NCBI GenBank assembly: GCA_025998755.1
Contig: AP024674.1
Span: 876,467 to 940,466, forward strand
Reading direction: 5' to 3'
DNA from: Armatimonadota bacterium
GTDB taxonomy: Bacteria > Armatimonadota > UBA5829 > DSUL01
DNA length: 64,000 nt
Part shown: positions 40,094 through 60,149 of the stretch, one piece after another
Position numbering within the stretch: the first letter of the stretch is position 1
How the letters are laid out: the number at the start of each line of letters is the position of its first letter
The notes under the pieces: generated by a model
What the model saw: only the letters and a program-made list of their open reading frames with translations
Database searches by the model: none
Told to the model about the DNA's origin: nothing
Position numbers and translations under genes: made by a program

Positions 40094-40115
40094 GGTGTGG
40101 GAGCGCTCCCACACC
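40094..40115 (+). promoter_or_regulatory. perfect 22-bp palindrome, LacI-family operator candidate
   Basis: ggtgtgggagc|gctcccacacc; core GTGGGAGCGCTCCCAC resembles the symmetric lac operator TGTGAGCGCTCACA; half-site tgtgggagc repeated at 40117-40125; 30 nt upstream of the first gene of the locus. Confidence 0.45.
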
Positions 40116-40144
40116 CTTGTGGGAGCAGAGAAGGAGAGGGCCGT

Positions 40145-42958
40145 ATGCTCCGTGCTACGGCCCCGGAAGCGATGTGGCGTATTCTGCTGGTCGCCATAGT
40201 GGCAGCAGCGCCGTGCGGACCTCTAGCCGCCGCACTGCTGGCGAATGCCGGGTTCGAGGCCGGAGACGGAGCCACGCCTCCAGATCCCCTTTACTGGACA
40301 GAGTACGGTCCGGACCTGACCGGCGAACGCTCTTCTGTCTTCAAGCGCTTGGGAGGATGGGCGGCAAAGCGTTGGACGGGCGGCGACCATCAGGAGTACG
40401 GATATTATCAGGACTTCCCGGCGATCCCGGGCAGAGAGTATCGTCTTGCCGCCTGGCTTCACAGCCCGCCCTCGGACGCGCTGTCTGGCTCCAGCTATGC
40501 GTGTCTGAAACTCGAGTTCCTGTCACCAGGCGGCGCGATGCTGCTCCAACGGGAGAGCCTCCGTCTCACCTCATCCAACGCTGGGTTCGAGGAGTATCTG
40601 GTCACAGCGGTGGCACCTCCGGGGGCCACAAAAGGTCGGGTGGTCTACGCTGTAGGCGCGGGTGCCGCACCGCACGGCGGTGCGGCCTACTGCGACGACG
40701 TCACGCTCGAAGATCTGGGACCGCTGCCCACATCCGACGACGCGTTGCTGGAAGAGCTCCAGAAAAGGGCCTTCCGTTTCTTCTGGGACGAGGCAGGGCC
40801 GCTGGGGCTCATTAAAGACCGGGCAGGCAACTTCCGGCAAGACCGATACCAGCACTCCAGCATCGCATCCGTGGGATTTGGGCTGGCGGCGATCTGCGTG
40901 GCCGAGGGGCGGGGCTGGGTGTCACGGGAGCAGGCTCGTCAGCGCATCGCGCTGACGCTGGATACCCTGGCTACGAAGGTTCCCAGGCAGCACGGATTCT
41001 TGCCCCATTTCCTGGATGCACGAACCGGGCAGCCATCCCCGGGAACGGAATACTCCGCCATTGATACGGCAATCCTGCTCTACGGAGCGCTGTTTGCCGG
41101 GTCCTGGTTCGAGGATCGATACGGAGACGCTTCCATTCGGGAGGCGGCTGAGGCTCTGTACCACGCAGTCCAATGGCCTGTTCTGCATTCGGGCAGCACC
41201 GTTTACAGCGAATACTGGATGATGGATCTGCTGGCCATCGGCTCGCCAACATATCCGCTCCCGCCCTCCGTGTGGAACGCGTTCAGCCGCAACTTCCAGG
41301 ACAATCTGGCCACGCGCCCGGCCGACCGGTCATATCCCAGGTTTTTCTACCCGGTGCTGTTTGTGCACCAGTATCCGCAGCTTTTCCTGGATATGCGGTT
41401 CCGGCGCGACGTCCATACTGTGGACTTGACCTATTTCGAGAGCACCCGGAACCACACTTTTTCGAACAGGCAGTACTGCATTGATCACTCCGTGTCCGCC
41501 GGGTTTGCGCATCCCCGCTTCCAGACCTACTCGGAGCATTGTTGGGGACTGACCGCCGGGGATGGCCCGGACGGATACCGGGACTATGGCGAGGCGCTTC
41601 CCTGGCTGCCGGAGCCGCAGAGCACCTGGCTTCTGGACGGGACCGTCCTGCCGCACGCCGCCGGTGGGTCTGTGGCCTTCGCTCCAGAGGTCTGTATCCC
41701 TGCGCTGCGCCGGATGGCGCAGACATATGGACACCGCATCTGGGGGCGTTACGGTTTTTCGGATGCCTTCAACGTGGACCGGAACTGGTGGGCGGAAGAT
41801 GTCATCGGTATAGACCTGGGCGCCATATTCCTGAGCATCGAGAACTATCGCAGTGGCGGCATCTGGCGGTGGACGATGCGAATCCCAGCCATCCGCCGCG
41901 CGCTGGCGCGGACGGGGTTCGTCGACGAGCGGCAGGCCGCGGTGGAGGATTTCGACTCCGCACCTCTTGGGGTCTGGGGATCCGGTTGCGAGAGCGATTG
42001 GGGAACGGGACACCTGTCATATGAGGAAATCGGGAGCACAGGCCAACTGCCAGGCGGCCGCGTTGCACGAATAACGGCGAGTGTGGCTGGAGGCGGAGCT
42101 GGAATCTGTCTTGGGTCGCTGGATTTGACCTACGCTGACGTCTTGAGCTTCTTCATCCGCGGGCAACGGGGTGGGGAGCGCATCACTCTGGTGCTGCGCG
42201 ATTGCGATGGACGGGAATCTGCCGTTGCGCTGACGGAGGAGCACCTATGGCAGCGCAGCATAGGCACGGACTGGCAGACTGTTTCTGTGCCGCTCAGCGC
42301 TTTCGACGGCATCCGCAGACCGTGCGCAGAGCGGCTGGCATTCCTGCTGCAGGAACCGGGGTCGGTCTGGGTTGACGGAGTGGCGTTCACCGGTGCGCAT
42401 CCAGATGCTCCGGCCGTGCCACTCCCCAGTCCCGGTTATGTGCGCAACCTTCCTCCCGGAGTATCTGTCACTCTCGAAAACCTTGTCGTAACGGACGACT
42501 TCGGAGCGTTTTTCTACGCCGCTCGGCCGGATCGCGCATCAGGAATACGCATTCAGCCGGGCGGCGGCTTCACGCCGGGGGAGCGCATTTCAGTCCGTGG
42601 AACCGTGGGGAGTGCAGATGAGGAGCCGGCGGTCTTCGCGACAGCGGTCTCCCGGCAGGGCAGGGTGTTGCCCCTTGAGCCGGTCGGGATGAAGTTGGCT
42701 GGTATAGGCAATAACCGCCCCGATCCCCTGGGACTGCGGGTTCGCTCCTGGGGTCAGGTGTCCGGTCTCGAACAGGATGGATTCCGTCTCCGGGACGGTT
42801 CCGGACGGGAGCTGGCGGTCGTCGCGCCCTCTCTTCCGAAGCCGGCTCCCGGAGCATTTGTCATTGTCACAGGTGTCGCGGGGCGCCGGGTTGCAGCGCA
42901 GGGTCCCCAACCGGTGCTGCGAATCCGGTCTCCGTGGGACATTGAGGTAGTGCAGTAG
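40145..42958 (+). CDS. secreted multi-domain glycoside hydrolase: N-terminal carbohydrate-binding module + (alpha/alpha)6 GH144/DUF3131-like catalytic domain (putative endo-beta-1,2-glucanase)
   Basis: Signal peptide (WRILLVAIVAAAPCGPLAAALLA); CBM4/9-like segment (NAGFEAGDG...YCDDVTLE); catalytic-domain motifs HGFLPHFLD and YGFSDAFNVDRNWWAEDVIGIDLGAIFLSIENYRSGG; ATG 40145 preceded by aaggagagg. Confidence 0.65.
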   Translation: MLRATAPEAMWRILLVAIVAAAPCGPLAAALLANAGFEAGDGATPPDPLYWTEYGPDLTGERSSVFKRLGGWAAKRWTGGDHQEYGYYQDFPAIPGREYRLAAWLHSPPSDALSGSSYACLKLEFLSPGGAMLLQRESLRLTSSNAGFEEYLVTAVAPPGATKGRVVYAVGAGAAPHGGAAYCDDVTLEDLGPLPTSDDALLEELQKRAFRFFWDEAGPLGLIKDRAGNFRQDRYQHSSIASVGFGLAAICVAEGRGWVSREQARQRIALTLDTLATKVPRQHGFLPHFLDARTGQPSPGTEYSAIDTAILLYGALFAGSWFEDRYGDASIREAAEALYHAVQWPVLHSGSTVYSEYWMMDLLAIGSPTYPLPPSVWNAFSRNFQDNLATRPADRSYPRFFYPVLFVHQYPQLFLDMRFRRDVHTVDLTYFESTRNHTFSNRQYCIDHSVSAGFAHPRFQTYSEHCWGLTAGDGPDGYRDYGEALPWLPEPQSTWLLDGTVLPHAAGGSVAFAPEVCIPALRRMAQTYGHRIWGRYGFSDAFNVDRNWWAEDVIGIDLGAIFLSIENYRSGGIWRWTMRIPAIRRALARTGFVDERQAAVEDFDSAPLGVWGSGCESDWGTGHLSYEEIGSTGQLPGGRVARITASVAGGGAGICLGSLDLTYADVLSFFIRGQRGGERITLVLRDCDGRESAVALTEEHLWQRSIGTDWQTVSVPLSAFDGIRRPCAERLAFLLQEPGSVWVDGVAFTGAHPDAPAVPLPSPGYVRNLPPGVSVTLENLVVTDDFGAFFYAARPDRASGIRIQPGGGFTPGERISVRGTVGSADEEPAVFATAVSRQGRVLPLEPVGMKLAGIGNNRPDPLGLRVRSWGQVSGLEQDGFRLRDGSGRELAVVAPSLPKPAPGAFVIVTGVAGRRVAAQGPQPVLRIRSPWDIEVVQ

Positions 42959-45793: not shown

Positions 45794-46483
45794 ATGAACC
45801 GCAAGGCATTCACGCTTATTGAACTGCTGGTGGTGATCGCCATCATCGCGATCCTGGCTGCCATCCTGTTCCCGGTTTTCACCCGGGCCCGAGAGAGCAG
45901 CAAAAGGTCGGCCTGTCTGTCCAACTGCAAGCAGCTCGCTTCTGCAATGCAGATGTACATTGATGACTGGAAAGGCCGCTTCCCGTCGTTCACGTATAGT
46001 GAGCAGTGGAAGCAGCTGGAGCCGCAGAATATCGTCTCCTACACAAAGAGCGAAGATGTCTTTCACTGCCCTGGCGCTACGGATATCAATAGCGCCCGGG
46101 TTCCGCCGCGAAACGCCAGCGAAAACTGGAAGAACTACTTCGGCCGGAATATGGGCAGCCCGGCTCAGTGGAAGTGGACGGACTACAAGATGATGGACAA
46201 CGGGTATCTGCCAGGAATGAGCGCCTCTGAAGTGCGCTCGCCCGTGTGGCTGGTGGTCTGTATTGACAACACGGACTGGTGGCCGCGGCATCCACGAGGC
46301 ACGGCTGCGAAAAATTACAACGATGGAGGGAGCAATCTGGCGTTCCTGGACGGACACGCGGCGTATTTTCCGAAGGAACGCTACAACGACGGCAACAAGC
46401 GATCCGGTCCCGATGTGGACGACGCAGGAGCCACTCCTTTCTGGAACTGGGGGCTTCCCCGGGATTACTGGATTCCGGAATGA
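45794..46483 (+). CDS. prepilin-type N-terminal cleavage/methylation domain protein (DUF1559-like)
   Basis: N-terminus [29 protein letters not shown]; C-terminal [15 protein letters not shown] (H-X9-DG-like); ggagg RBS. Confidence 0.8.
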
Positions 46484-47772
46484 TCCCTGTGCTGTTGGCA
46501 TTGATGCTCGCGGGAACCGCCGCGGCGGGAGGCGAGCTGCGAGATGACCGCAGCTACCTGATCCAGGTTGCTCGCGAGACGTGGCGCTACTTTGAAGAGT
46601 GCCGCGACCCGGTATCCGGCCTGGTCTGGGATCACTGCGGGGAGACTGGCGCTGAAGGTCGGGGAGAGTATACCAGCCCCACGAATATCGCCCTAGACCT
46701 CACCTCGACGCTTGCGGCGATGGACCTCGGCATCATCACGCGGCAGCAGGCACAGGAGCGCATCGAAACGATTGTCGGCACACTTCAAAAGCTGGATCGG
46801 TACCGGGGGTTTTTCTTCAATTTTTATGAAACTGCCACGCTGAAGCCGACAGTACGCTTCCTTTCTTTTGTGGACAACGGCTGGCTGACCCTGGCGCTTC
46901 TGGCCGTCCGGCAGGAGTTTCCGGGAGATATGGGGGAGCGGGCCACCGCCATATTGAACAGCCAGGACTATGCATTCTTTTATGACCGGAAGGCCGGTTT
47001 GATGTATCACGGGTTCCATACGGATCGCAGGGGGATCCGCTACGGCCACTATGCTATCTTTTGCTCCGAACCCCGGGCGGCATCGCTTCTGGCCATCTCT
47101 CGCGGCGATGTGCCGGTGGAGCACTGGTTCCGGATGGAGAGAGCGCGTCCGGCCGAGGGGAAGGATTACAGGAAAGGAGAGATGCGCCGTTACTGCGGCG
47201 TCGACGTCCAGGAGAGCTACTTCGTCTACCGCGGTGTGCCCGTTGTGCCCAGCTGGGGCGGAAGCATGTTCGAGTTTTTGATGCCATCCCTGTTCATTGA
47301 CGAGTCCAGGTATGCGCGCACCAGTCTGGCCGAAAACAATCGCCGCGCCGTAGATGCGCAGATTGCGTTTGCCGCGGAGAGGGGAATGCCTGCCTGGGGA
47401 CTGTCGCCGTGCGCCAATCCGGCTGGCGGATATGGAGAGTACGGCGCTGCACCCATCGGGGTACAGGGGTATGCAGAGGGCGTAGTGACCCCGCACGCCT
47501 CGTTTCTGGCACTGGAGATCCGCCCTGCAGAGTCGCTGGCCAACATCCGGAAAATGGAACAGCTGTATGCCATCCGTGGTCACTACGGGTTCCGGGACTC
47601 TGTGGACACGTCTTCCGGCCGGGTAGCCAGTGTGTATCTGGCGCTTGACCAGGGCATGATCCTCACCGCCATCGGCAACTATCTGACGGGCGGCTCGATC
47701 CGCCGGCGCGTTATGCGGGATCCATCCATGAAGAAGGCTACCAGGATTCTTGCAATGGAGCGCTTTTTCTGA
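46480..47772 (+). CDS. secreted GH144/DUF3131-like (alpha/alpha)6 glycoside hydrolase, second copy
   Basis: Signal peptide ([18 protein letters not shown]); motifs SFVDNGWL and YGFRDSVD...[21 protein letters not shown] paralogous to the 40145..42958 catalytic domain; start overlaps upstream stop (ATGA). Confidence 0.65.
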
Positions 47773-47791
47773 AGGAAATGGGGCAAGGAAA

Positions 47792-48853
47792 GTGGCTGCT
47801 TCCAGAACACCACCGAACATCTTCGACGTGGCCCGTCGGGCGGGGGTTTCCAAGTCCACGGTTTCGCGCGTTCTGAACGGGTCGGATCGCGTGAGCGAAG
47901 CCTCCCGACAGGCGGTTCTCCGGGCAATGGAAGACCTCGGCTTTCGGCCGAACAGCGCCGCCAGGCGTCTTGCAGGCTCGGCGGACCGGCGCATTGGTCT
48001 GTTGCTGCCTTTTTTCGGAAGCATGTTCTCATCCTTTTACGTGTATGAGATCATCCGTGGGGTGGGTCAGGTGGTTTCGGAACGCGATACGGAACTGCTG
48101 CTCCATTTTCAGCACGAAGACCGCAATGGACATAACCTCCGGCGGCGTTTGACAGCCAATGGTGCGCTTGGCGGATGGGTCATCGCAGATGAAATGGTGG
48201 ACGACGGGCTACTGGAAGAGGTTCGCGAGGCTGGAATCCCCTTTGTGTTGCTGAACAGAGAGTCCTCCGTTCCGTGGTCTTCCTGGGCCACAGTGGATAA
48301 CCGGGGCGCCGCAGAGGCAGTTGTGGAATATCTCGTTTCTCTCGGACACACGTTTATCGCCACGCTGACTGGTCCGCTTCACCAGCCTCCCGCCCGGGAG
48401 CGCCTGGAAGGCTTCCAAGCGGCGATGGCTGCGCGGGGTCTTGAGGTTCCGGATGGTTGGGTGGCCCGCTGCGACTTTCAGCGGCAGCTGGCAGCGGAAG
48501 AGACAGTCAGAATGCTTCGAGAACGTCCCCGTCCGACGGCTATCTTTGCGGCGTCGGACCTGATGGCCGCCGGCGCATATGAGGCTGCCTCGTCGCTTGG
48601 GTTGCGGATCCCGGAGGATCTCTCGGTGGTGGGCTTCGACGACGACTTCATTGCGGCTCAGTTGATTCCCCGCCTGACTACGGTCCGCCAGCCCCTCCAG
48701 GATGCGGCGCGGGCGGCCACATCCTGGTTGCTGGATCATCTGGAAGAAAGAAACGGACAACCGCTACGTGTGAGATTGCCGGCTTTTCTGGTGGAACGCG
48801 ACTCCTGTGCGCCGCCCTCCCGGGCGGACAACAGCAAGGGGAGCAGACCATGA
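47792..48853 (+). CDS. LacI-family transcriptional regulator
   Basis: N-terminal HTH NIFDVARRAGVSKSTVSRVLNG plus periplasmic-binding-like sugar-binding domain; GTG 47792 chosen, TTG 47750 possible. Confidence 0.8.
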   Translation: MAASRTPPNIFDVARRAGVSKSTVSRVLNGSDRVSEASRQAVLRAMEDLGFRPNSAARRLAGSADRRIGLLLPFFGSMFSSFYVYEIIRGVGQVVSERDTELLLHFQHEDRNGHNLRRRLTANGALGGWVIADEMVDDGLLEEVREAGIPFVLLNRESSVPWSSWATVDNRGAAEAVVEYLVSLGHTFIATLTGPLHQPPARERLEGFQAAMAARGLEVPDGWVARCDFQRQLAAEETVRMLRERPRPTAIFAASDLMAAGAYEAASSLGLRIPEDLSVVGFDDDFIAAQLIPRLTTVRQPLQDAARAATSWLLDHLEERNGQPLRVRLPAFLVERDSCAPPSRADNSKGSRP

Positions 48854-51243
48854 ACGCCGCGGTCGCGGGGAGGTTGAGTGCAGCCGGGCGGACCCGCTTC
48901 GGTCATTTCTCGGAAGACGGCAGGGAATTCGTCATCCGCCGGCCAGACACTCCGCGGCCCTGGGTGAACGTTCTGTGCAACGACGATCCGGGATACGGGT
49001 GCATTTGGAGCCAGGCGGGAGGTGGTTATAGCTGGCTGGTCAACGCGGAGTTGAACCGGATCACCTTCTGGCAGCAGGACCTGATCCGGGATGACCGTGG
49101 GCGTTTTATCTATCTGCAGGATGCCCGGACCGGCGAGCTCTGGTCGGCCGGGTACCAGCCTGTCCGGCGGAAGCCCGAAGCCTTCGAATGCCGCCATGGG
49201 GCGGGCTACTCCGTCCTTAGCTCCCAGAACTCGGGCGTTCTCAGCCGGTTGACGGTCTTTGTGCCGCCGGCAGCGCCGCTGGAGGTCTGGCTGCTGGAGG
49301 TTGCAAACTTCTCGGGAGCCCCGCGCGATATCCTGGTTACCAGCTATCTGGAATGGTGCCTGGGCACAGCGCACGACACTCACCGGGAGTTCCATCGCAT
49401 CTTCATAGAAACGGAGTTCATCCGAGAACGCAGCGCCATCTTGGCGCGCAAGCGTCTGTGGGCCATCCCAAACGCCCTGGGCCAGGGATGGAACCGCAAC
49501 TGGGAGGGAACGGCATTTCACGCTTGCTCCCTACCCGTCGCCGCGTTCGAGTGCGACCGGGAGGTGTTTGTCGGGAGATACGGTTCTCTGGAATCGCCTG
49601 CCGCTTTGACTAACGGGCGGATGGCGGGGACCAGCGGACGATGGGGGGATCCCATCGCATCCCTTCAGGCCCCCCTCCGCTTGGGACCGGGTGAGTCGGC
49701 GGAGTTGGTCTTCGTTCTGGGCGCAGCCAATAGCGACGCAGTTGCGTTGTCTCTGGCGGAGCAGTACTGCAACGTCAAGCGTGCGGCCGAGGCGCTCCGC
49801 GAAACTCAGCTATGGTGGAGAAACCGTCTGGATGGCTACTCGGCCGAGACCCCGGACCCGGGACTGAATGCTCTGCTTAATACTTGGCTCCGCTATCAGG
49901 CCATGGCGGGGCGCCTCTGGGGGCGCAGCGGATACTATCAACCGGGCGGGGCATACGGCTTCCGTGATCAGCTACAAGACAGCCTGGTCTTCCTGCCGAC
50001 AGAGCCGGATCGGACCCGCCGTCAGATCCTGCTGCACGCGGCACACCAGTTCTCTGCCGGGCACGTGTTCCACTGGTGGCAGCCGATCGCCGAGTCCGGC
50101 GCGCACAGCAGGTTTTCAGACGATCTCCTCTGGCTACCGTTTGCGGTGCTGGCCTATATCCGGGAGACCGGCGACACGGCCATCCTGAATTTTCAAGCGC
50201 CTTTTGTGGACGGCCCTTCGGATACCATCCGGAACCACTGCGAGCGCGCGCTCGATCTGGCCCTGTCCCGAAGGAGTCCCCGTGGCCTGCCGCTCATGGG
50301 CGAGGGGGACTGGAACGATGGCCTTTCGGCGGTCGGCTGGGAGGGTAAAGGCGAATCGGTATGGGTGGGACATTTTCTGTGCTATCTCCTTCCGCGCTGG
50401 GCGGAGCTGGCCAGGACCGTGGGTGACGGCGAGCGCGCGGCACAGTACCTGCAGGCGGCCCAAGACCTGCAGGCTGCCATCAACAGGTGGGCCTGGGACG
50501 GCCAGTGGTATTTCCGGGCGACCTGCGACGATGGGACGGTGATCGGCGGCAGTGCGTGCAATGAAGGCCAGATATTCCTGAACGCTCAAACATGGTCGAT
50601 CATCGCCGGGGTCTGCCCTCCCGAGCGCCGTAGGCAACTTATGCGGACGGTCCGGGACCGGCTCTATACGGCAGCCGGGCCGGTGCTGCTCCGTCCGGCA
50701 TACACCGTGCCGGATGAACGGATTGGATACCTCACCCGTTACGCTCCCGGGGTGCGGGAGAACGGGGGTGTGTATCTCCACGCGGCAACGTGGGCGATCT
50801 GGGCCGAGTGCCTGCTCGGCCGCGCAGAGCAAGCCTGGAGACTTGTTCAGAGCATCTCTCCTTGCATTCGTGCACTGGACGCTGAACTGTACCGCGCCGA
50901 GCCATACGTAACGCCCGGGAACATCGATGGCCCGGACTCGCCGCACTTCGGGCGCGGGGGGTGGACGTGGTACACCGGATCGGCCGCCTGGCTGTTCCGG
51001 GTGGTTGCGGAGTGGTTGCTGGGAGTCCGTCCCGCCAGGGAAGGACTGCGAGTTGCCCCCTGCATCCCTGAGGACTGGGACGGTTTTCGGGTGTACCGTC
51101 GCTTCCGTGGAGCGGGCTACCAGATCGCTGTTTCCAGAAATGGTGAGGGGGGGAAGCTTATGGTGGACGGCCGCCCTGTTGCAGGGGACATTGTGCCAGC
51201 ATTCCACGACGGGAAAGACCATCAGGTCGAACTCCTGTTGTAG
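48850..51243 (+). CDS. glycoside hydrolase family 94 phosphorylase (cellobiose/oligoglucan phosphorylase type)
   Basis: N-terminus FGHFSEDGREFVIRRPDTPRPWVNVLCND typical of GH94; 797 aa; start overlaps LacI stop. Confidence 0.8.
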   Translation: MNAAVAGRLSAAGRTRFGHFSEDGREFVIRRPDTPRPWVNVLCNDDPGYGCIWSQAGGGYSWLVNAELNRITFWQQDLIRDDRGRFIYLQDARTGELWSAGYQPVRRKPEAFECRHGAGYSVLSSQNSGVLSRLTVFVPPAAPLEVWLLEVANFSGAPRDILVTSYLEWCLGTAHDTHREFHRIFIETEFIRERSAILARKRLWAIPNALGQGWNRNWEGTAFHACSLPVAAFECDREVFVGRYGSLESPAALTNGRMAGTSGRWGDPIASLQAPLRLGPGESAELVFVLGAANSDAVALSLAEQYCNVKRAAEALRETQLWWRNRLDGYSAETPDPGLNALLNTWLRYQAMAGRLWGRSGYYQPGGAYGFRDQLQDSLVFLPTEPDRTRRQILLHAAHQFSAGHVFHWWQPIAESGAHSRFSDDLLWLPFAVLAYIRETGDTAILNFQAPFVDGPSDTIRNHCERALDLALSRRSPRGLPLMGEGDWNDGLSAVGWEGKGESVWVGHFLCYLLPRWAELARTVGDGERAAQYLQAAQDLQAAINRWAWDGQWYFRATCDDGTVIGGSACNEGQIFLNAQTWSIIAGVCPPERRRQLMRTVRDRLYTAAGPVLLRPAYTVPDERIGYLTRYAPGVRENGGVYLHAATWAIWAECLLGRAEQAWRLVQSISPCIRALDAELYRAEPYVTPGNIDGPDSPHFGRGGWTWYTGSAAWLFRVVAEWLLGVRPAREGLRVAPCIPEDWDGFRVYRRFRGAGYQIAVSRNGEGGKLMVDGRPVAGDIVPAFHDGKDHQVELLL

Positions 51244-51318: not shown

Positions 51319-51376
51319 CTCGCCGCCGGCTGCGGCCCAAAGGCTGCGATTGAGACCGGGAGGAGAAGGGGCTGAA

Positions 51377-52075
51377 ATGAACCTTAAGACTGCGAAGCGC
51401 GCAGGGCTGAGCCTGGCGCTGCTCATCCTCGTATGCGAAGCTGCTGTGGCATACAGCATCGTGAACGTGCCCACTGCCAACCAGGCGGCTTTGCGGGAAG
51501 TTAACCTTGCCTACTACAGCATGTCTGTGGACAGGCTGCCGGTCACGCACAAGGACATCATCATTATCTACTCCACGGTAGCGCCGAACCTCGAGGTGGA
51601 GTACTTCCACATCAATATCAACAAGGGGGCTCCCTCGCAGAATCTGGTGAACGCCAGCTACAGGTTGGTGAGCGAAACGGCGCAGATCCCGGACGTAGTG
51701 GTGGGCGCCAAGAATATCTTCGAGGACGACCACTCGCCCAATCCCGATGAGCAGAAGCGCTCCTATTACATCGCCACCGCAAAGACCCTGAACCCGCCGA
51801 AGCCGGGAGCCGCCTGGCAGCCCGTGGTGCGTCTGCACGTGAACTACGGCACCCGGGAGCACAGGGGACTGTTCGGTGGTGTCCAGATCGCGGTCACGCC
51901 GCAGCTGGGGATCGCGGCAATGAAGTTCTCCAGCTCACCCTATGTGGACACCTTTTTCGGCAACTCGATGGAATATGCCGTCGTTTACTCGCTCGGGAAA
52001 GGGCGTCCCACGCTGAAGGCGGGCACTCTGGGCCGCCACGAATGGGTGGGACTGGATTACAGCATCTTCTTCTGA
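51377..52075 (+). CDS. hypothetical exported protein, possible outer-membrane beta-barrel
   Basis: Signal peptide (LSLALLILVCEAAVA), alternating beta-strand-like pattern, C-terminal aromatic residues (YSIFF). Confidence 0.5.
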   Translation: MNLKTAKRAGLSLALLILVCEAAVAYSIVNVPTANQAALREVNLAYYSMSVDRLPVTHKDIIIIYSTVAPNLEVEYFHININKGAPSQNLVNASYRLVSETAQIPDVVVGAKNIFEDDHSPNPDEQKRSYYIATAKTLNPPKPGAAWQPVVRLHVNYGTREHRGLFGGVQIAVTPQLGIAAMKFSSSPYVDTFFGNSMEYAVVYSLGKGRPTLKAGTLGRHEWVGLDYSIFF

Positions 52076-52172: not shown

Positions 52173-53735
52173 GTGAGTTGTCCGGACTTGCGCATTGCGG
52201 CGGCTTTGCTGATCGCCGCAGCAGTTCCCGTGGTTCTCCCGCTACCAGTGACGGCTGACGTGAGGACCGCGGCGCTGTTCTCCGACGGGGCCGTGCTTCA
52301 GAGGCAGCGGCCCGTTCCGGTGTGGGGATGGGGCGACGAGGGTGAGAATGTTACCGTCCACTTCAACGGACAGCAAAAATCAACAACCGTCCGGGGAGGC
52401 AGGTGGATGGTTCGGCTGGATCCGATGGAGGCGGGAGGTCCGTTTACCCTTACGATTCGCGGCCGCAACACCGTGGAAGTGCGGGATGTGCTGGTGGGCG
52501 AGGTCTGGGTGTGCAGCGGGCAGTCGAACATGCAGTGGCCCATGAAGCTGTCTGACATGCCGGAGCCGGATACCATCCAGAAGTCCGCAGACCCGCAAAT
52601 GCGCCTGTTTACCGTGCCTCGGCGCGCAGCGGACACGCCGCAGTCCGATGTGCAGTCGCGTTGGGAACCTTGCGATCCCTCCACGGTGCCAGATTTCTCT
52701 GCCGTTGGCTATTTCTTCGGACGAATGTTGAGAAAAGAGCTTGGTGTGCCGGTTGGCCTTATAAGTACTAACTACGGGGGCACCCCTGCCCAGGCGTGGA
52801 CAAGTTGTCCGGTGCTTCGGTTCGATCCGCTTCTCCGCAACCTGCTGGAACGCCAAGAGAAGGCTGTCGCCGAATATCCTGCCAGGCTGGCCGAGTGGCG
52901 CAGGGTGATGGATGCGCATCGGCAGGAGGTGGAGAAGGCCCGACAGGAGGGCCGCGAGCCCCCGCGTCCGCCCGCTCAGCCGCAGAATCCGGCAGAGTCT
53001 CCGCAGAGGCCCTGTGGTCTTTACAACGCGATGATCGCACCCCTCATCCCCTATGCCATCCGGGGCGTCATTTGGTATCAGGGCGAATCCAACGCGGGAG
53101 AAGCGTGGCTGTACCGCAGGCTGTTTCCGGCGATGATCCGCAACTGGCGCGCCAACTGGGGACAGGGAGACTTTCCGTTCCTGTTCGTGCAACTTGCTCC
53201 CTATACCAAGATCAAGCCGGAGCCCGGCGACAGTAAATGGGCGGAGCTCCGGGAGGCCCAGCTTCTGACCGCTCTAAACGTGCCGAACACGGCGATGGCG
53301 GTCATCACGGATCTTGGTGACGAGGACGATATTCATCCTAAGCGCAAGGCGCCCGTCGGAGAGCGACTGGCCCTCGCCGCGCTTGCGAAGGCTTACGGGC
53401 GGAACGTGGAGTATTCCGGGCCCGTATACCGGACAATGCAGACCGAAGGAAGCCGCGTGCGGCTAAGTTTCGACCACGCGGAGGGGGGCCTAGTGGTCCA
53501 CGGTGACCGCCTGACCGGGTTTACCATCGCCGGAGCGGACGGTCGCTTTGTGAATGCGCAAGCGCGTGTGGAAGGCAACCAGGTCATCGTGTGGAGCCCA
53601 CAGGTCCCCAGACCGGCCGCCGTGCGCTTCGGGTGGGCGGATTATCCTGTTGTGAATCTCTACAACAGGGCCGGTCTTCCCGCCTCACCGTTCCGGACGG
53701 ATGACTTCTTGATGGTGACTGGGCCGCGCAGCTAG
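52173..53735 (+). CDS. sialate O-acetylesterase-like carbohydrate esterase (SASA domain)
   Basis: Signal peptide; motifs LFSDGAVLQRQRPVPVWGWG, WVCSGQSNMQWPM, VIWYQGESNAGEAW. Confidence 0.75.
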   Translation: MSCPDLRIAAALLIAAAVPVVLPLPVTADVRTAALFSDGAVLQRQRPVPVWGWGDEGENVTVHFNGQQKSTTVRGGRWMVRLDPMEAGGPFTLTIRGRNTVEVRDVLVGEVWVCSGQSNMQWPMKLSDMPEPDTIQKSADPQMRLFTVPRRAADTPQSDVQSRWEPCDPSTVPDFSAVGYFFGRMLRKELGVPVGLISTNYGGTPAQAWTSCPVLRFDPLLRNLLERQEKAVAEYPARLAEWRRVMDAHRQEVEKARQEGREPPRPPAQPQNPAESPQRPCGLYNAMIAPLIPYAIRGVIWYQGESNAGEAWLYRRLFPAMIRNWRANWGQGDFPFLFVQLAPYTKIKPEPGDSKWAELREAQLLTALNVPNTAMAVITDLGDEDDIHPKRKAPVGERLALAALAKAYGRNVEYSGPVYRTMQTEGSRVRLSFDHAEGGLVVHGDRLTGFTIAGADGRFVNAQARVEGNQVIVWSPQVPRPAAVRFGWADYPVVNLYNRAGLPASPFRTDDFLMVTGPRS

Positions 53736-53799
53736 GCCGGCATCTGTGCGGCCGCCGGACACACAGTCTGGCGGCCGCTCCGTCTTTCCGCCGGTGTCC

Positions 53800-54501
53800 T
53801 CACGGAAGATGACGGGTGGTGGGGCAGCGCCGCCACGCGTCCAGCCTCCTGAAGCCCTCGGCATAATCCACTCCGCAAGCCAGACCCCGGAAGCGTCCCT
53901 GCACGCGGATCATATCCAGGATGTCAATCCCGTCGTGGTCCTTCAGCCACCGGACCTGACTCTGATGGCAGTTCATCATAGCGAGCTTATCTTCGATGAC
54001 TTCCGTGATGTCCACGTATTCCGTCGGAATGAACGCCGCGCCGGCCAGGCTGTCCATATAGTAAAGGGGCGGGATCCCGTCCGTCCGCTCGTGAGCGGTC
54101 TCCACGTGGGGCAGGGAGGCCATGAATGAGCTCACGAAAACCAGTTCCGAAACGATCCGGTGATCCAGATGATAGTCGTCGGGGTTGTGCGTGATGACCA
54201 CATCGGGACGCGCCTGTCGCATCATATCAATGAACATCATCCGGGTCGCGTGGTCGTGGTAAATGAACTCGTCGTGGATATCCAGCCAGATTAGCTCTGC
54301 CCCGCAGACTCTGGCGGATGCTTCGGCTTCCTTTTTGCGTATCTCTTTCAACTCCGGTGGGGGAATGACCATGTGACCCTGCTCGCCGTTAGTGGCGACG
54401 CAGATGACCACCTGGTGTCCCTCCCGGGCGTAGCGCAGCAACGTTCCGGCGCACAGGATCTCGATATCATCGGGGTGGGCGCCCACAGCCAGTATTCTCA
54501 A
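53800..54501 (-). CDS. PIG-L/LmbE family N-acetylglucosaminyl deacetylase
   Basis: N-terminus MRILAVGAHPDDIEILCAGT and HNPDDYHLDH zinc-site motif. Confidence 0.8.
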   Translation of the reverse strand: MRILAVGAHPDDIEILCAGTLLRYAREGHQVVICVATNGEQGHMVIPPPELKEIRKKEAEASARVCGAELIWLDIHDEFIYHDHATRMMFIDMMRQARPDVVITHNPDDYHLDHRIVSELVFVSSFMASLPHVETAHERTDGIPPLYYMDSLAGAAFIPTEYVDITEVIEDKLAMMNCHQSQVRWLKDHDGIDILDMIRVQGRFRGLACGVDYAEGFRRLDAWRRCPTTRHLP

Positions 54502-54578
54502 CGTCGTGCATCCTCCTTCTTGTGTCTCTCGTGCCAGCCCGCAATGCCAGCCAATAGCTCAGGCCGGCACGGGAAAAC

Positions 54579-55559
54579 CTAGTCGTAGATACCCTCGCGT
54601 CGCCACACGTCCAGAATGAGCTCATAGCGAGACAGGCGCATTCCAGTGTAGATGCAGTTGCTGGTGGAGAAAATGTAGCCGTAGCCGGGCATTCCGTGGC
54701 GCAGGGCGTAACGGGCGGACTCGACACAGTCTTCGTCCGTTCCTGTGTCCAGCAGTCCGCAGTTCACGTTGCCAATCAGGCACAACCGTTGACCGTAAAG
54801 CCGCTTCACCTCCGCGATGTCCACTCCCGCCTGGGGATCAAGGGAATGCAGCGCGTGAGGACCGGCTTCCACGAGTTGATCAATGATGGGCATGATATTC
54901 CCGTCGGTGTGCTTTATGGTGTAGAACCCCATCTCCCTATAGCCCATGATGATCTGCTTCAGATACGGCGCCACAAACTCCGCGAACTGATCCGGACTGA
55001 GGAAGGGACCCGAATTCAGGCAGTAGTCCGAACAGAGGGCGAAGCCGTCCAAGCAGCCGTGTTCCCGCAGAACACGTGCTCGCTCCAGTGCCGCGTCCAC
55101 CATTCTCGAAGCCTCGTCCTTGATGCCTGCAGGATCGTCCGCAATCCGGTAGCTGAATTCCACCATCCGATCCCCCGGCGGTATGCCGTAGGTAGCGTCG
55201 CCATGGAGCATCAGGAAATACTTTAGACCGGACCGTTGACGGATGACATCCAGGAGCCGCCGCGTTTCATCAAGGTCGCCAGGGTTCGGGTGCACGAAGA
55301 TCGCATCGTGCTGAAAGCGCTCAGCAGTGGCGATGAAGACGTCGGCCATATCCTGTCGATGTAGCTGGCGCTCCTTCTCCTGCATCTGATCCCACTGCCC
55401 GTAAGCCCGGTGCAGGGGATGCACCTTCCCGAACGCTTCCATGGTGAGGAAAAAGACCAGCTCGAAATGCGGCACGCGCCCCTTGAGAGGCCTGCGCTCT
55501 AGCGCGGCAATGAAACGTTCACGCGGCATAAAGTCCTGGCCGACCGTTGTGTCCTGCAA
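54579..55559 (-). CDS. uroporphyrinogen decarboxylase (URO-D)-like family protein
   Basis: URO-D-like TIM-barrel sequence features across 326 aa; sits inside a sugar-type operon, so not assigned to heme synthesis. Confidence 0.6.
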   Translation of the reverse strand: MQDTTVGQDFMPRERFIAALERRPLKGRVPHFELVFFLTMEAFGKVHPLHRAYGQWDQMQEKERQLHRQDMADVFIATAERFQHDAIFVHPNPGDLDETRRLLDVIRQRSGLKYFLMLHGDATYGIPPGDRMVEFSYRIADDPAGIKDEASRMVDAALERARVLREHGCLDGFALCSDYCLNSGPFLSPDQFAEFVAPYLKQIIMGYREMGFYTIKHTDGNIMPIIDQLVEAGPHALHSLDPQAGVDIAEVKRLYGQRLCLIGNVNCGLLDTGTDEDCVESARYALRHGMPGYGYIFSTSNCIYTGMRLSRYELILDVWRREGIYD

Positions 55560-55586
55560 TTGATCTCCTTGGTTGCGACAAACCGC

Positions 55587-56324
55587 CTAGAGATAATGGA
55601 TCCTGTCGCGGTACTGCTCCAGCAGACGCGCGTTGTATTCGTCGCCTCCGTCCAGATTGGCGCTCCTGAAGACTGGCGGCTCAATGCCCCTCGCAAGGCA
55701 GATCTCCACCACCTCGACTGTGAGCGCATTCACCAGGGCGATCCCAGTGAGCGAAGAGAGGGGACCAATCCGCTGAGGGCATCCGGGAACCTCCACGGCC
55801 GCGTCTCCGACAGGCGCTCCGTTGTCCAGGACAACGTCACACAGGTCCGGCAGCTTGAGTCCCGAGGAGTCGCGACTTGATACCGCCGACGAATATGCAA
55901 CCGAGGTCACTCCGATGACCTTAATCTGCTGCTCGCGGGCTGCGCGCGCCATATCCACAACCACCGGGTTCCGGCCGGATGTGGAGGCGATGATCAGGAC
56001 ATCTCCGGCCGACGCAGGCGATGAGAGGAGCAGCTCCCGCCCGAGTCCCGGAATCCTTTCGAATCGCGAGGTGGCCGTCACGGGTCGGACGGAAAGGTTC
56101 ATTCCGTGAGGATAGATAGGGTTGACCAGCATCAATCCGCCGGTCCGATACACCATCTCTTCCGCAATCATGAACGAGTGGCTGGCCCCGAATGCGAACA
56201 GGCTGTTTCCCTGGGCAATAGCATCAGCAATGATGCAGGCAGCCTTGTGAAGATTGTCTTTCTGCCCTGTCCGAATCTTCTGCAAAGCTCCGGCGGCCGC
56301 GTCAAAATAGCTCTCCATCGGCAT
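55587..56324 (-). CDS. SIS-domain sugar-phosphate isomerase-like protein
   Basis: SIS fold features (NSLFAFGASHS, DVLIIASTSGRNPVVVDMARAAREQQIKVIGVTS). Confidence 0.65.
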   Translation of the reverse strand: MPMESYFDAAAGALQKIRTGQKDNLHKAACIIADAIAQGNSLFAFGASHSFMIAEEMVYRTGGLMLVNPIYPHGMNLSVRPVTATSRFERIPGLGRELLLSSPASAGDVLIIASTSGRNPVVVDMARAAREQQIKVIGVTSVAYSSAVSSRDSSGLKLPDLCDVVLDNGAPVGDAAVEVPGCPQRIGPLSSLTGIALVNALTVEVVEICLARGIEPPVFRSANLDGGDEYNARLLEQYRDRIHYL

Positions 56325-56328
56325 AAGG

Positions 56329-57066
56329 TCAGTAGCCCCTCTCGTTGTAGCGCTGAAGGCACTGCTCGTAATGGGCCGGACCCTCAGGACGGTTCACGCT
56401 TACGAAGACCGTGGGCGGGTCGCCCTCTGCCGCCATCTTCTCCATCACCGTCCCCCAGAGCATCCAGCCCAGGACGGTCATCGCCACGCCGGAGAGAGGA
56501 ATGGCTTTGACCTCCAGTCCCGGAACGTCCACGCAGGCATCCCCGTAAGGAACGCCGATATCCAGCACAATATCCGCAGCATCGCCCAGCTTCTTGCCGG
56601 ACGGATGCTGGGACTCTACGCGCGACGAATACTCCTTTGAGACCAGGGCAATAACGCTGACACCCTTCTTCTGGCACGCCAGCGCCATCTCCACGGCCTG
56701 ACGGCTCCTGCCAGATACCGAGGACAGCAACATCACGTCGCCTGCCTTCAAAGGGCTCTGTGAGACCGCAAAGCGGACGCGAGCCAGATCGGAGTCAGGG
56801 TCAGAAGAACGTTGCTGTCGGATGCAGTCGGGCAGCGGGGCCTGGAGGCTTATCGCAAAGGAGAACCGCTGGACCGCCGCCAACCCGCCTGCTCGATTGA
56901 TGAAATCTCCTTCCGTCCCGTGCCCGATGTTATGGCAGAATACGGCGCCGCCGGAACGGAGCGCCTGGACCACCAGATCCGCGGCGCGGTTTACCTGCTC
57001 CATCTGGGTGGATCCAAGGAAATCCAGAAGCTCCCGCACCCGATCCAGATACATCAGAGCCACCAT
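56329..57066 (-). CDS. SIS-domain sugar-phosphate isomerase-like protein (paralog)
   Basis: Paralogous to 55587..56324 (GAVFCHNIGHG, DVMLLSSVSGRSRQAVEMALACQKKGVSVIALVS); ATG 57066 preceded by aggggga. Confidence 0.65.
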   Translation of the reverse strand: MVALMYLDRVRELLDFLGSTQMEQVNRAADLVVQALRSGGAVFCHNIGHGTEGDFINRAGGLAAVQRFSFAISLQAPLPDCIRQQRSSDPDSDLARVRFAVSQSPLKAGDVMLLSSVSGRSRQAVEMALACQKKGVSVIALVSKEYSSRVESQHPSGKKLGDAADIVLDIGVPYGDACVDVPGLEVKAIPLSGVAMTVLGWMLWGTVMEKMAAEGDPPTVFVSVNRPEGPAHYEQCLQRYNERGY

Positions 57067-57070
57067 AGCG

Positions 57071-58084
57071 TCATCCCCCTTGTGCCGCGGGCAGCGCTTC
57101 ACGAAAGAGCTCGCCAGCGGTATTGAGCAACCTGGCTCGCCGTGCGGGATAGTCTTCTACAGAGATCTCCCTGAGAATGACCAGCGCAGCCCCGATCACG
57201 GGTGGCTGTCTGACCTGCACGACCTCCAGAGCCGGAGCTTGCTCCGCGAGAACCGCCTTCACATGCTCAGCGTAAAGACGCGAGTTCGCCCCCACACCGC
57301 CCGACAGAGCCACCGTGCACGGCGTGGCGATCAGGCCGACGCTTTCGGCGGCGTCCCGGATGGTCTGGGCGAGATCGGCGGCTGCCGACTGGAGGATCCT
57401 CAGAGCGATGGAATCTCCCTTTTCGGCTTCCTGGTCCACGATGCGCGCCAGGGCCGCGATCTCCGCCCGGTCTCTGCGTTCCAGCGAATAATCCACAAGC
57501 CTCCACCCGGACTCCTCCGGCGATTCCCCGGTGCAGGCCCGGTAGACCGGCTCGGCCAGCGACGTGCGGCGCCTCTCCGACCACCCGGAGCAGGCTGCGG
57601 CCCTCATGGCCTCACGCCCGATCTGATAACCTCCCCCGTGGTCGCCCAGCTCCGGTCCAAGACCGTCCAGTAACACATCTCTCCCCTCAGGCGAACGCGC
57701 ATAGACCAACGCTCCAGTCCCCGCGATGGCCACGATTCCCCATTGCATTCCAGCCAACTCCATAGGGCAATCCTGCTCGCGGACCGCGTGCCACATCGTT
57801 TGAAAGGAGCCTTGCAACGGCTCGATGGGCGGGCCGAGATCGGGGGAAACGTTGTGGTGCAGGAACGCCGGCCTTGAATCCGCCAGGGCCTGTTTGACCG
57901 CACGCTCAAGACTGCGACGGCTACGTCCGGATCCGCTCACCCCCCGGCCACCTTCCGGGTCCTCTATTCCGCTTCGTCCCACAGCGATGGCCGTTCCGTC
58001 CAGCTGGCACAGCAGCGCATCACACTTGCTGCCTCCTCTATCCACTGCGAGGACAAACGTACCGATTTCAGGATGTGCCTTCAT
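57071..58084 (-). CDS. BadF/BadG/BcrA/BcrD-type ATPase (N-acetylglucosamine kinase-like)
   Basis: N-terminal phosphate-1 motif VLAVDRGGSKCDALL and ASKHA-fold features (VAIAGTG, TVALSGGVG). Confidence 0.75.
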   Translation of the reverse strand: MKAHPEIGTFVLAVDRGGSKCDALLCQLDGTAIAVGRSGIEDPEGGRGVSGSGRSRRSLERAVKQALADSRPAFLHHNVSPDLGPPIEPLQGSFQTMWHAVREQDCPMELAGMQWGIVAIAGTGALVYARSPEGRDVLLDGLGPELGDHGGGYQIGREAMRAAACSGWSERRRTSLAEPVYRACTGESPEESGWRLVDYSLERRDRAEIAALARIVDQEAEKGDSIALRILQSAAADLAQTIRDAAESVGLIATPCTVALSGGVGANSRLYAEHVKAVLAEQAPALEVVQVRQPPVIGAALVILREISVEDYPARRARLLNTAGELFREALPAAQGG

Positions 58085-58326
58085 GGACGCCTTTTCCCGC
58101 TGAGCCTAAAACTCGTTGACCGGACCGCCCCAGAGTTCGTCCCGGCGGCACTGCTCCTCCTGCTGCAGTTTGGCGTATCTGCCAGGCCCATTGTCAGGCA
58201 AGAACGCGCAAAACCTGAAAACTCCCGGCTTTTTGCCGTTACTTGGGAGGTAGCAGTGTGTTACAACACCTGTAAACCGAGTCCAGAACCAGCGAGAGGA
58301 ATGGGAAACCCTTGCCTTCTGCCAGA

Positions 58327-59106
58327 ATGATGTTTGAGATGACCGTCCGCGATGTGGAGGAAGGTCTGCGGCAGACGCAGACCATCATTGTCCCGGTCGG
58401 CATCCTGGAACAGCACGGCTACCACTTGCCCCTGAGTGTGGATATTCACAACGCTGTGGAACTTGCGCGGCGCGCATCCGAACGGACCGGCTGCTTCGTG
58501 GCCCCTCCCGTCCACTATAACTTTTCCGGGGGAAGCCTCCCCGGTACGATCAACATCAGCCCGCCGGTGTTCTCGCTGATGCTGATGGACATCCTGCAAA
58601 GCCTTGTGATGCAGGGGTTCCGCAGGATCCTTCTGCTTCTCGGGCACGCTGGCTCGGAAAGTCAGGCAGCGGCCCGAGACGCGGCCCATCATTTGCAGCG
58701 GCTGCGGCCACCGGTGCCGGGGCTGGTGATCTGCGTTGTTCCCTTCACGGAGCTATCTCCCACCATCCAGCAGGCGATGAACGATGGCGATTATCACGCG
58801 GGATTCTATGAGACATCCCTGATGCTCTACTGGAAGCCCGAGATGGTCCGCTTGGATCTGGCGGCGATGGATGAGCCGTCGGTAGCGGAGATGATGCGCC
58901 GGGATCCGGACGCTTATGCCATAGCAGAGAAACGGACGGCCAGCCCATTCGAAGTACCGCGGGTGTTTCAGGATCCGCGGATTAGGGTGGGGGTGATGGG
59001 GGACTACACCGGAGCCAGCGCCGAGGTGGGAGAAAAGATCGCGGGAGAATGCGTGGATGCGCTTGAATCCATCATCCGCCTGATGGAGGAGGGAGGGGTG
59101 GCATGA
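58327..59106 (+). CDS. creatininase-family amidohydrolase
   Basis: Motifs IIVPVGILEQHGYHLPLSVD and LLLLGHAGSES; ATG 58327 chosen (TTG 58312 possible). Confidence 0.75.
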   Translation: MMFEMTVRDVEEGLRQTQTIIVPVGILEQHGYHLPLSVDIHNAVELARRASERTGCFVAPPVHYNFSGGSLPGTINISPPVFSLMLMDILQSLVMQGFRRILLLLGHAGSESQAAARDAAHHLQRLRPPVPGLVICVVPFTELSPTIQQAMNDGDYHAGFYETSLMLYWKPEMVRLDLAAMDEPSVAEMMRRDPDAYAIAEKRTASPFEVPRVFQDPRIRVGVMGDYTGASAEVGEKIAGECVDALESIIRLMEEGGVA

Positions 59107-60149
59107 TCCGTTGGGGGATTATCGGGTGTGGAGGCATAGCGCGAAGGCGTGTGCTGCCTGCCAGGACGGACATGCGATCCACCCGCTTCGTCGCGGTAAT
59201 GGACGCAGATCCGGATGTGACCCGGGATGTCGCGGAGGAGACCGGTACGCGCGCCTGTTTCAGCTTGGAAGAGATCCTCGATGACCCAGAAATTCAGGCG
59301 GTCTACATCGCTACGCCGGTCCATCTTCACCATCCTCAGGCTCTATTGGCCGCCGTCAAAGGCAAGCACGTCCTGCTCGAGAAGCCTCTTGCGCTGAATG
59401 TGGAACAGGGTCGGGAAGTCGTGGAAACCTTCGAGCGCAAAGGCCTTCTGCTGATGGAAGGCTATATGATGAAGTTCCACTCTCTCAACGGACGGGCAGC
59501 AGAAATGGTTGCCCGCGGAGATCTGGGAAAACCCGTCTTCCTGCGCGCGCAGCTGACCTGCTGGTACCCTGAGATTCCGGGCGCCTGGAGGCAGGATCCC
59601 TCACTTGGCGGCGGAGGGGCACTGATGGACATGGCCACGCACCTTTTCGACCTGCTGGAGGAGATCTCTGGCTCCTCCATTGTGGAGGTGACAGCGCTAG
59701 TCGCCACTCAAACGTTCTCGTACCCCGTGGAGGATAGTTCCGTGACGCTGCTTGGTTTCCAGAATGGAGCCTTCGGGGTTGTGGAGGCTTTTTACAACAT
59801 TCCGGATGTGGCGGCTCAAGGGCGGTTAGAGGTCTACGGAACGCAAGGTTCGATCCTGGCAGAGGGAACGATCGGGCAGGATCCGGGGGGCTCAATGCAT
59901 GCTTTCCTGAGTCCGTCGGAAAAGGGGTACGACGCTCTTCAGCAACGCGCGCCGTCTGACCTGCGGCGGCAAGTCATCATCGCACCTCCCGTAAATATGT
60001 ACGCTGCCGAGTTCGATTACTTTTCCGAATGTATCGCCGACGGTCGCCCTCCAGCCAAAAGCTCCGGCAGGCAGGGGCTGCATATTCTGGAGGTGGCTCG
60101 CGCAGCGTATGAGAGCGCGCGCACGGGACGGGCTGTCTGTCTCAGTTGA
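59103..60149 (+). CDS. Gfo/Idh/MocA family oxidoreductase
   Basis: N-terminus MIRWGIIGCGGIARRRVLPA and EKPLALNVEQ motif; ATG overlaps upstream stop (ATGA). Confidence 0.8.
   Translation: MIRWGIIGCGGIARRRVLPARTDMRSTRFVAVMDADPDVTRDVAEETGTRACFSLEEILDDPEIQAVYIATPVHLHHPQALLAAVKGKHVLLEKPLALNVEQGREVVETFERKGLLLMEGYMMKFHSLNGRAAEMVARGDLGKPVFLRAQLTCWYPEIPGAWRQDPSLGGGGALMDMATHLFDLLEEISGSSIVEVTALVATQTFSYPVEDSSVTLLGFQNGAFGVVEAFYNIPDVAAQGRLEVYGTQGSILAEGTIGQDPGGSMHAFLSPSEKGYDALQQRAPSDLRRQVIIAPPVNMYAAEFDYFSECIADGRPPAKSSGRQGLHILEVARAAYESARTGRAVCLS

Follow-up and report, generated by a model that had tools for sequence, protein, structure and literature searches.

The stretch of DNA analysed here, 64,000 nucleotides of contig AP024674.1 (positions 876,467 to 940,466; hereafter the window), comes from the metagenome-assembled genome (MAG) of a hot-spring Armatimonadota bacterium and carries on its minus strand five co-directional open reading frames (ORFs). 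In order of transcription these encode a BadF-type kinase, two SIS-domain proteins (SIS_B, then SIS_A), a protein resembling uroporphyrinogen decarboxylase (URO-D) and a PIG-L deacetylase:

57071-58084, minus strand: BadF-type kinase, 337 amino acids, first gene of the operon
56329-57102, minus strand: SIS_B, 257 amino acids as the longest ORF
55587-56324, minus strand: SIS_A, 245 amino acids
54579-55559, minus strand: URO-D-like protein, 326 amino acids, with a TTG start and an alternative ATG start at 55526
53800-54501, minus strand: PIG-L deacetylase, 233 amino acids, last gene of the operon

The arrangement is real and maintained, but only within the clade of the window. Its best explanation overall, which we hold with slightly more confidence than doubt, is an operon specific to one lineage, in which three separately conserved modules have come together, namely the kinase with the SIS pair, the deacetylase, and the URO-D-like protein. 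A first-pass annotation of this DNA had described five co-directional minus-strand genes with short gaps, two of them encoding paralogous SIS proteins; the ORFs are there, with gaps of about 4, 4, 27 and 77 nucleotides, the SIS proteins are paralogs of 32% identity, and all five family assignments stand, each Pfam match lying above its cut-off.

The longest SIS_B ORF overlaps the kinase gene by 32 nucleotides, and with the ATG at position 57066, which is probably the true SIS_B start, a gap of about 4 nucleotides is left between the two genes. SIS_B and SIS_A are 4 nucleotides apart. The 27 nucleotides between SIS_A and the URO-D-like gene include an AAGGAG Shine-Dalgarno sequence ahead of the TTG start of the latter, and the 77 nucleotides between the URO-D-like gene and the PIG-L gene include an AAGGAGG sequence ahead of the TTG start of PIG-L. 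A consensus scan of positions 53500-58500 gave no sigma-70-like promoter site, either ahead of the URO-D-like gene or elsewhere, and two terminator-like sites as against 3.6 expected from shuffled sequences, both of them intragenic (56884-56868 within SIS_B and 54160-54147 within PIG-L). No RNA element was found in or before the operon, riboswitches in general and cobalamin riboswitches in particular included. Three non-coding features border or interrupt the operon:

53748-53778, no strand assigned: GC-rich hairpin 3' of the last operon gene, with 13-nucleotide arms (92% complementary) and a 5-nucleotide loop
54527-54574, minus strand: intercistronic inverted repeat lying after the URO-D-like gene and before that of PIG-L, with 13-nucleotide arms (85% complementary) and a 22-nucleotide spacer
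58085-58311, no strand assigned: divergent intergenic region between the kinase gene and a creatininase-family gene

The hairpin, which sits between the convergent genes of PIG-L and a SASA-family esterase, is likely to be the transcript end. The intercistronic repeat is not followed by a run of T and could be an element of mRNA processing or stability. Apart from the divergent intergenic region, nothing non-coding of appreciable length lies upstream of the operon. The operon promoter or promoters are presumed to lie within this region, which also contains a weak 15-nucleotide inverted repeat at 58199-58245.

The kinase matches Pfam family PF01869 (BcrAD_BadFG) with 59.3 bits (cut-off 31.5) and scores 59.2 bits against the NagK_SO3507 equivalog model, below the cut-off of 370. 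Its closest relative of solved structure is MurK (8zo3, 6.8e-19), a kinase of N-acetylmuramic acid (MurNAc) and N-acetylglucosamine (GlcNAc). The two SIS proteins match the SIS_2 family of Pfam with 71.9 and 140.2 bits (cut-off 27) and the UPF0309/PRK02947 model NF002805 (cut-off 135) with 293.9 bits for SIS_A and 175.1 bits for SIS_B; matches to MurQ models are marginal (20 bits, cut-off 168). For both, the top relative of solved structure is NagS of Streptomyces coelicolor (SCO4393, 9eol), with values of 2e-61 for SIS_A, which is 45% identical to it over 244 amino acids, and 1.4e-22 for SIS_B.

NagS was reported in 2025 as a dehydratase that converts GlcNAc 6-phosphate (GlcNAc-6-P) to 6P-chromogen I; it is homodimeric, its gene stands alone next to dmdR1, orthologues (at least 58.7% identity) were found only in Streptomycetaceae, and the clade of NagS-type SIS proteins was placed adjacent to MurQ (PMC12680351). 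The active site is composite, R64 and N228 being contributed by the other monomer, and mutagenesis showed that H53, R64, S91, E94, D179 and N228 matter; homologues with 26-36% identity showed no activity on GlcNAc-6-P (PMC12680351). With 45% identity, and with a kinase, SIS_B and the URO-D-like protein encoded beside it, SIS_A falls short of an orthologue of NagS as defined by sequence identity (at least 58.7%) and dmdR1 linkage. It nevertheless retains NagS residues H53, S54, R64, S91, E94, S119, S121, D179 and N228. All nine are kept in 25 of the 31 SIS_A-type orthologues tabulated; the remaining six deviate at S54 or S91, and all 31 have E94. SIS_B retains H53, R64, S119, S121, D179 and N228 and has aspartate at both position 91 and position 94. 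These two positions vary across all SIS_B orthologues, with S91/E94 missing in every lineage examined, and the combination of a complete SIS_A with an altered SIS_B is present at all other loci that have both paralogs. Judging from their sequences, the SIS proteins belong to the UPF0309 clade related to NagS and MurQ, with dehydratase or etherase chemistry, and not to an isomerase/deaminase or glucosamine 6-phosphate isomerase type. The N-acetyl-hexosamine logic that the first-pass annotation had read from the operon is thus upheld by the relatives of its products (MurK, NagS, and the PIG-L deacetylases Dac and BshB1), but the role of SIS isomerase that went with it is replaced by a NagS/MurQ-type role.

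The triad of BadF-type kinase, SIS_B and SIS_A, of which the kinase is the conserved first member in other lineages, was found at no fewer than 12 loci outside the clade of the window, one of them in a Verrucomicrobiae MAG (the loci include L088, L096-L098, L100, L102-L104, L106 and L120), and NagS-like paired genes are present in Armatimonadota, Verrucomicrobiota and others. At locus L102 (2252-9756), one co-directional cluster comprises an ABC sugar transporter, a NagK-like BadF kinase, two SIS_2 proteins and a GlmD-like deaminase with two SIS domains. The amino-sugar role of the triad is independently supported, because the triad is flanked there by the sugar transporter and the GlmD-like deaminase. 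Other genes were noted near the triad or the SIS pair as well. A pyruvate formate-lyase-like glycyl-radical enzyme is encoded directly upstream of the triad at L096 (3812-6205) and L100 (3856-6213), and a glycyl-radical enzyme gene lies three genes further upstream at L095 (1027-3363). At L089 (2405-7753), bshC is found two genes upstream of the SIS pair, which is split by a 368-amino-acid ORF with no family match.

The PIG-L protein matches Pfam family PF02585 with 106.7 bits (cut-off 28.2), and its translation contains the zinc motifs 'GAHPDDIE' (AHPDD) and 'HLDH' (HxDH). Its top relatives of solved structure are a diacetylchitobiose deacetylase (8bgn, 3.4e-19) and BshB1 (6p2t, 1e-17).

The URO-D-like protein matches the URO-D family of Pfam (PF01208) with 68.3 bits (cut-off 23.9), over residues 182-317, its C-terminal half, only. 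It does not reach the cut-off of the hemE model TIGR01464 (18.5 bits, cut-off 302.95) or of the MtaA/CmuA family TIGR01463 (44.4 bits, cut-off 235.4). The AlphaFold2 model of the protein, computed from an alignment of 31 sequences, has a predicted local distance difference test (pLDDT) value of 95.3, and its best fold matches are MtaA (4ay7, template modelling (TM) score 0.73) and HemE structures (TM about 0.72), at 13-17% identity overall and 13-15% for the HemE structures. A profile search ranks MtaA first (2.9e-16) and CdmB (9rui), a chloromethane methyltransferase I enzyme, second (2.4e-11). With the geometry of the active site taken from alignment and secondary structure, the zinc ligands H-x-C...C of MtaA align with H217-T-D219...N301, and H217, D219 and N301, together with E33, D178 and D241, are invariant or nearly so in the alignment of the subfamily. 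The catalytic and substrate residues of human UROD comprise an N-terminal Arg-rich motif, Asp86, Tyr164 and His339. The first 80 residues of the URO-D-like protein fail to align with HemE, whose N-terminal Arg motif for substrate binding is missing, the position of the C-terminal catalytic histidine of HemE is occupied by N301, and the HemE sequence 'LFTKGG' is replaced by 'KHTDGN'. Profile and structural comparison thus bears out the URO-D fold assigned in the first-pass annotation, but finds neither the catalytic residues of HemE nor the zinc ligands of MtaA. The protein is an orthologue of neither and represents a very large, uncharacterised H-x-D...N subfamily. Searches of the literature yielded nothing relevant on URO-D-like proteins in sugar clusters.

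Five independent contigs from relatives (L006, L007, L090, L091 and L092) have the five genes in this order. On those with complete genes, identities to the window proteins range from about 72% for SIS_B and about 73% for the kinase up to 96% for PIG-L; on L091 the kinase is represented by a 68-amino-acid fragment only, which is 62% identical. For comparison with other lineages, members of the URO-D subfamily were sought widely: more than 7,000 clusters were matched at 90% clustering, and 160 clusters at 50% clustering fell below 1e-30. A scan of genomes confirmed at least 580 relatives, of which 80 loci were retained for synteny analysis by tblastn of all window proteins; setting aside the close relatives L006 and L007 leaves 78 loci of other lineages. 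Among the 80 loci, SIS, BadF and PIG-L genes adjoin the URO-D-like gene only in L006 and L007. In the stored flanks of the other 78, none has a SIS or BadF neighbour, and two have a PIG-L homologue, about 8.5 kb away. Conversely, among the loci retrieved with SIS_A, the triad is followed by URO-D-like and PIG-L genes only in L090-L092, which belong to the same clade as the window, and no SIS_A locus outside that clade has a URO-D-like gene. These results show that the URO-D-fold protein was recruited to the operon only in the Armatimonadota clade of the window. The junction is limited to its own lineage, so amino-sugar breakdown does not include the URO-D-like gene as a conserved step, and the membership in such a pathway that the first-pass annotation had raised is not borne out by the synteny survey it had proposed.

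In the URO-D subfamily at large, most of the 80 retained loci show 70-77% identity (67-68% at the low end), across a range that takes in Armatimonadota, Verrucomicrobiota, Lentisphaerota, Kiritimatiellota, Planctomycetota, Chloroflexota, Calditrichota, Sumerlaeota and candidate phyla. The gene is solitary in most genomes, and the family has no dominant operon partner: the 127 immediate neighbours represent 156 Pfam families, each found in five neighbours at most. The sole recurring context is corrinoid methyltransferase machinery, at 9-15 of the 78 other-lineage loci (L010, L014, L026, L033, L042, L050, L071, L078 and L080). MtaC-like corrinoid (B12-binding) proteins are encoded at seven of the 78, several within 35 bp; a translationally coupled DUF1638 gene, the corrinoid activator RACo and a homocysteine S-methyltransferase domain are each present at three loci, and additional URO-D paralogs at about 12. 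The H-x-D-G motif of the query subfamily recurs in most of the URO-D paralogs in corrinoid clusters. In an Anaerolineaceae MAG (L014, 3396-11011), genes of a URO-D protein, a corrinoid protein, a second URO-D protein, RACo, a homocysteine methyltransferase, DUF1638 and a URO-D protein of the query family follow one another in this order as a full corrinoid methyl-transfer cluster, and the cluster resembles a split, pterin-free system of the methionine synthase kind. In a Verrucomicrobiota MAG (L033, 9235-16261), a corrinoid protein gene is followed by six consecutive URO-D paralogs; the first is a member of the query subfamily, and the H-x-D-G motif is present in most of the six.

PIG-L genes, too, are solitary elsewhere, and one related MAG has its orthologues of PIG-L and of the URO-D-like protein (74-75% identity) on separate contigs. 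Because the three modules are separately conserved elsewhere, the operon is a lineage-specific mosaic, and the following route may be proposed for it. The first module (BadF, SIS_B and SIS_A) would be a widespread unit that processes a sugar of the N-acetyl-hexosamine type, its MurK-like kinase making the 6-phosphate. SIS_A and SIS_B would probably form an asymmetric heterodimer in which one site is complete and the other altered; the former would consist of the SIS_A core with trans-acting arginine and asparagine residues donated by SIS_B. This is suggested because the site of NagS is composite and because SIS_A is complete and SIS_B lacks S91/E94. The heterodimer would perform ring opening and elimination at C3 in the manner of NagS and MurQ, by dehydration or by removal of a 3-O-substituent. 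In the second module, the PIG-L zinc deacetylase would take off the N-acetyl group. For the third, the URO-D-fold protein, methyl transfer is the most likely chemistry, because its recurrent partners elsewhere are corrinoid methyl-transfer proteins, and one may speculate that it strips an O-methyl group from the sugar handled by the operon. The protein could act on a modified sugar, as the first-pass annotation had surmised, perhaps on an O-methylated one, but this receives no backing from the comparative evidence.

Several observations weigh against parts of this proposal. The 64-kb window encodes no corrinoid protein, RACo, DUF1638 protein or further URO-D paralog, and neither DUF362 nor a homocysteine methyltransferase was found in it. 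About 80% of the loci of the URO-D family have no methyl-transfer context, and the chemistry of the subfamily may differ from that of MtaA because it lacks the zinc ligands that serve MtaA for thiolate activation. Solitary SIS_A genes occur too (L086, L107, L108 and L111). Activity of SIS_A on GlcNAc-6-P is not assured, because NagS homologues at 26-36% identity are inactive, and the heterodimer is deduced only from gene adjacency and residue patterns. Finally, the tight spacing and the lack of promoter or terminator consensus between the genes mean that the URO-D-like protein and PIG-L could act in the same pathway here.

Among the alternatives, the one that fares best, while still unlikely, is that the modules are functionally unrelated, the URO-D-like protein and PIG-L being of a housekeeping type and merely co-transcribed with the triad, with PIG-L as a BshB-like deacetylase of the bacillithiol pathway. 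Orthologues of PIG-L at 61-74% identity are solitary and occur in varied contexts, and close homologues are named GlcNAc-malate deacetylase by several sources. BshB1 (TIGR04001) is the best NCBIfam match of PIG-L, with 127.8 bits; this is below the cut-off of 182.5, however, and among solved structures a chitobiose deacetylase comes first. The bshC gene near the SIS pair at L089 and the solitary state of the URO-D gene in most genomes also fit such a mosaic, whereas a deacetylase suits the N-acetyl-sugar logic of the triad, and at L102 the equivalent position is taken by the GlmD-like deaminase. Neither bshA nor bshC was identified among the ORFs scanned in the window (30717-63990).

A further alternative, which we consider improbable, gives the URO-D-fold protein a dedicated, integral role in the amino-sugar pathway. 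Working directly on the N-acetyl-hexosamine in its phosphorylated or dehydrated form, it might for instance decarboxylate, isomerise or hydrolyse it, and would be the first carbohydrate-active enzyme with a URO-D fold. The 27-nucleotide gap after SIS_A, the Shine-Dalgarno sequence and the lack of promoter or terminator consensus between the genes speak for this alternative, as does the retention of gene order in relatives whose kinases have diverged to about 73% identity. The conserved residues E33, D178, H217, D219, D241 and N301 are predicted to line the mouth of the barrel and would be compatible with a hard-metal or sugar-binding site, not with a thiolate-zinc site. What counts against it is the distribution of the genes: SIS and BadF neighbours are lacking at all 78 other-lineage loci, SIS_A loci outside the clade lack the URO-D-like gene, and the conservation of the family at 70-77% identity in phyla without the operon implies a function independent of it. 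That the gene is the uroporphyrinogen decarboxylase of the heme pathway of its host, placed here by chance, has next to no probability and was rejected, since the resemblance is one of fold only (TM about 0.72) and is opposed by the hemE score (18.5 bits against 303), the low identity to HemE structures, the restriction of the Pfam match to the C-terminal half, N301 at the position of the catalytic histidine and the missing Arg motif; neither heme orthology nor a promoter of its own, which the first-pass annotation had named as grounds against its reading, was thus found for the gene.

Two by-products of the analysis stand out, namely a conserved triad of kinase and probably heteromeric NagS-like proteins outside Streptomycetaceae and an ultra-conserved H-x-D...N subfamily of URO-D proteins. 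Complete NagS-type catalytic sets, reported as confined to Streptomycetaceae, are present in distant phyla, where they come together with a kinase and a degenerate paralog; they suggest that NagS-type chemistry may be an ordinary catabolic step, run as a heterodimer. The H-x-D...N site and the links to corrinoid proteins, RACo and homocysteine methyltransferase provide a first handle on a very large URO-D subfamily with no function assigned so far. The locus also illustrates the limits of guilt by association, a striking operon context being found in one clade only. A bolder reading, to which we give little credence as a whole, would see in the H-x-D...N subfamily a new class of enzymes directed at sugars. 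In glycan-degrading Armatimonadota, Planctomycetota-Verrucomicrobiota-Chlamydiota (PVC) phyla and Chloroflexota, they might demethylate or modify sugars that carry O-methyl groups or other decorations, either with the help of a corrinoid or independently of any cofactor. In the lineage of the window, such an enzyme would be combined with the heterodimeric NagS-type dehydratase and PIG-L into an N-acetyl-hexosamine route that bypasses NagA and NagB.

The following genes lie around the operon:

40097-42958, 46279-47772, 47750-48853 and 48850-51243, plus strand: two PF10091 'Glycoamylase' (GH144-type) proteins, a LacI regulator and a GH94 protein
58312-59106, plus strand: creatininase-family amidohydrolase with weak similarity to IolN and creatininase, below NCBIfam cut-offs
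59103-60149, plus strand: GFO/IDH/MocA oxidoreductase with weak similarity to IolG, below NCBIfam cut-offs, overlapping the creatininase-family gene

The top match of the GH94 protein is the GH94 domain of NdvB (cyclic beta-1,2-glucan synthase), followed by cellobiose phosphorylases and then chitobiose phosphorylases. A link to chitobiose through this neighbour was considered and rejected in view of the NdvB and cellobiose phosphorylase matches and the two PF10091 genes upstream; the group of PF10091, LacI and GH94 genes looks like a unit for utilisation of beta-1,2-glucan or sophoro-oligosaccharides, and the plus-strand neighbours contribute no evidence regarding amino sugars. The creatininase-family and GFO/IDH/MocA genes, which are divergent from the operon, are linked to the triad in the clade of the window only. 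An ORF of 241 amino acids at 51350-52075 (plus strand) has no Pfam or NCBIfam match; the related contigs have it too, 85-95% identical and next to the SASA-family esterase gene. Farther away are the gene of an archaeal-type phosphoenolpyruvate carboxylase (38309-39832, minus strand; PF14010, 601 bits), which adjoins that of isocitrate dehydrogenase, a bacterial class A RNase P RNA (7555-7937, plus strand; 225 bits) and one tRNA gene (36477-36549, minus strand).

Several known systems resemble parts of the operon. The nearest to SIS_A is NagS, with which it shares the UPF0309/PRK02947 SIS_2 family, 45% identity over the full length, the residues identified by mutagenesis and the phosphate-binding serines; unlike the solitary gene of the homodimeric NagS, the SIS_A gene stands together with those of a degenerate paralog and a kinase. 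Recycling of MurNAc by MurK and MurQ likewise employs a BadF-type kinase and then a SIS enzyme, with the same logic of 6-phosphorylation followed by elimination at C3, but the operon has two SIS subunits and no gene for a MurNAc transporter or for peptidoglycan recycling nearby. The archaeal chitin deacetylase Dac and the bacillithiol enzyme BshB1 share the fold and zinc motifs of PIG-L, whereas the operon has neither the exo-glucosaminidase nor GlmD, a GlmD-like protein being found only at L102. HemE has the same (beta/alpha)8 URO-D fold as the URO-D-like protein, but orthology and the catalytic and substrate-binding residues are missing. The nearest relatives of the URO-D-like protein in both sequence and fold are CdmB and the methylcobamide:coenzyme M methyltransferases MtaA and MtbA, from which it differs in that H-x-D...N replaces the zinc-binding H-x-C...C, in that the corrinoid partner is missing from the window, and in that most members of its family are encoded by solitary genes.

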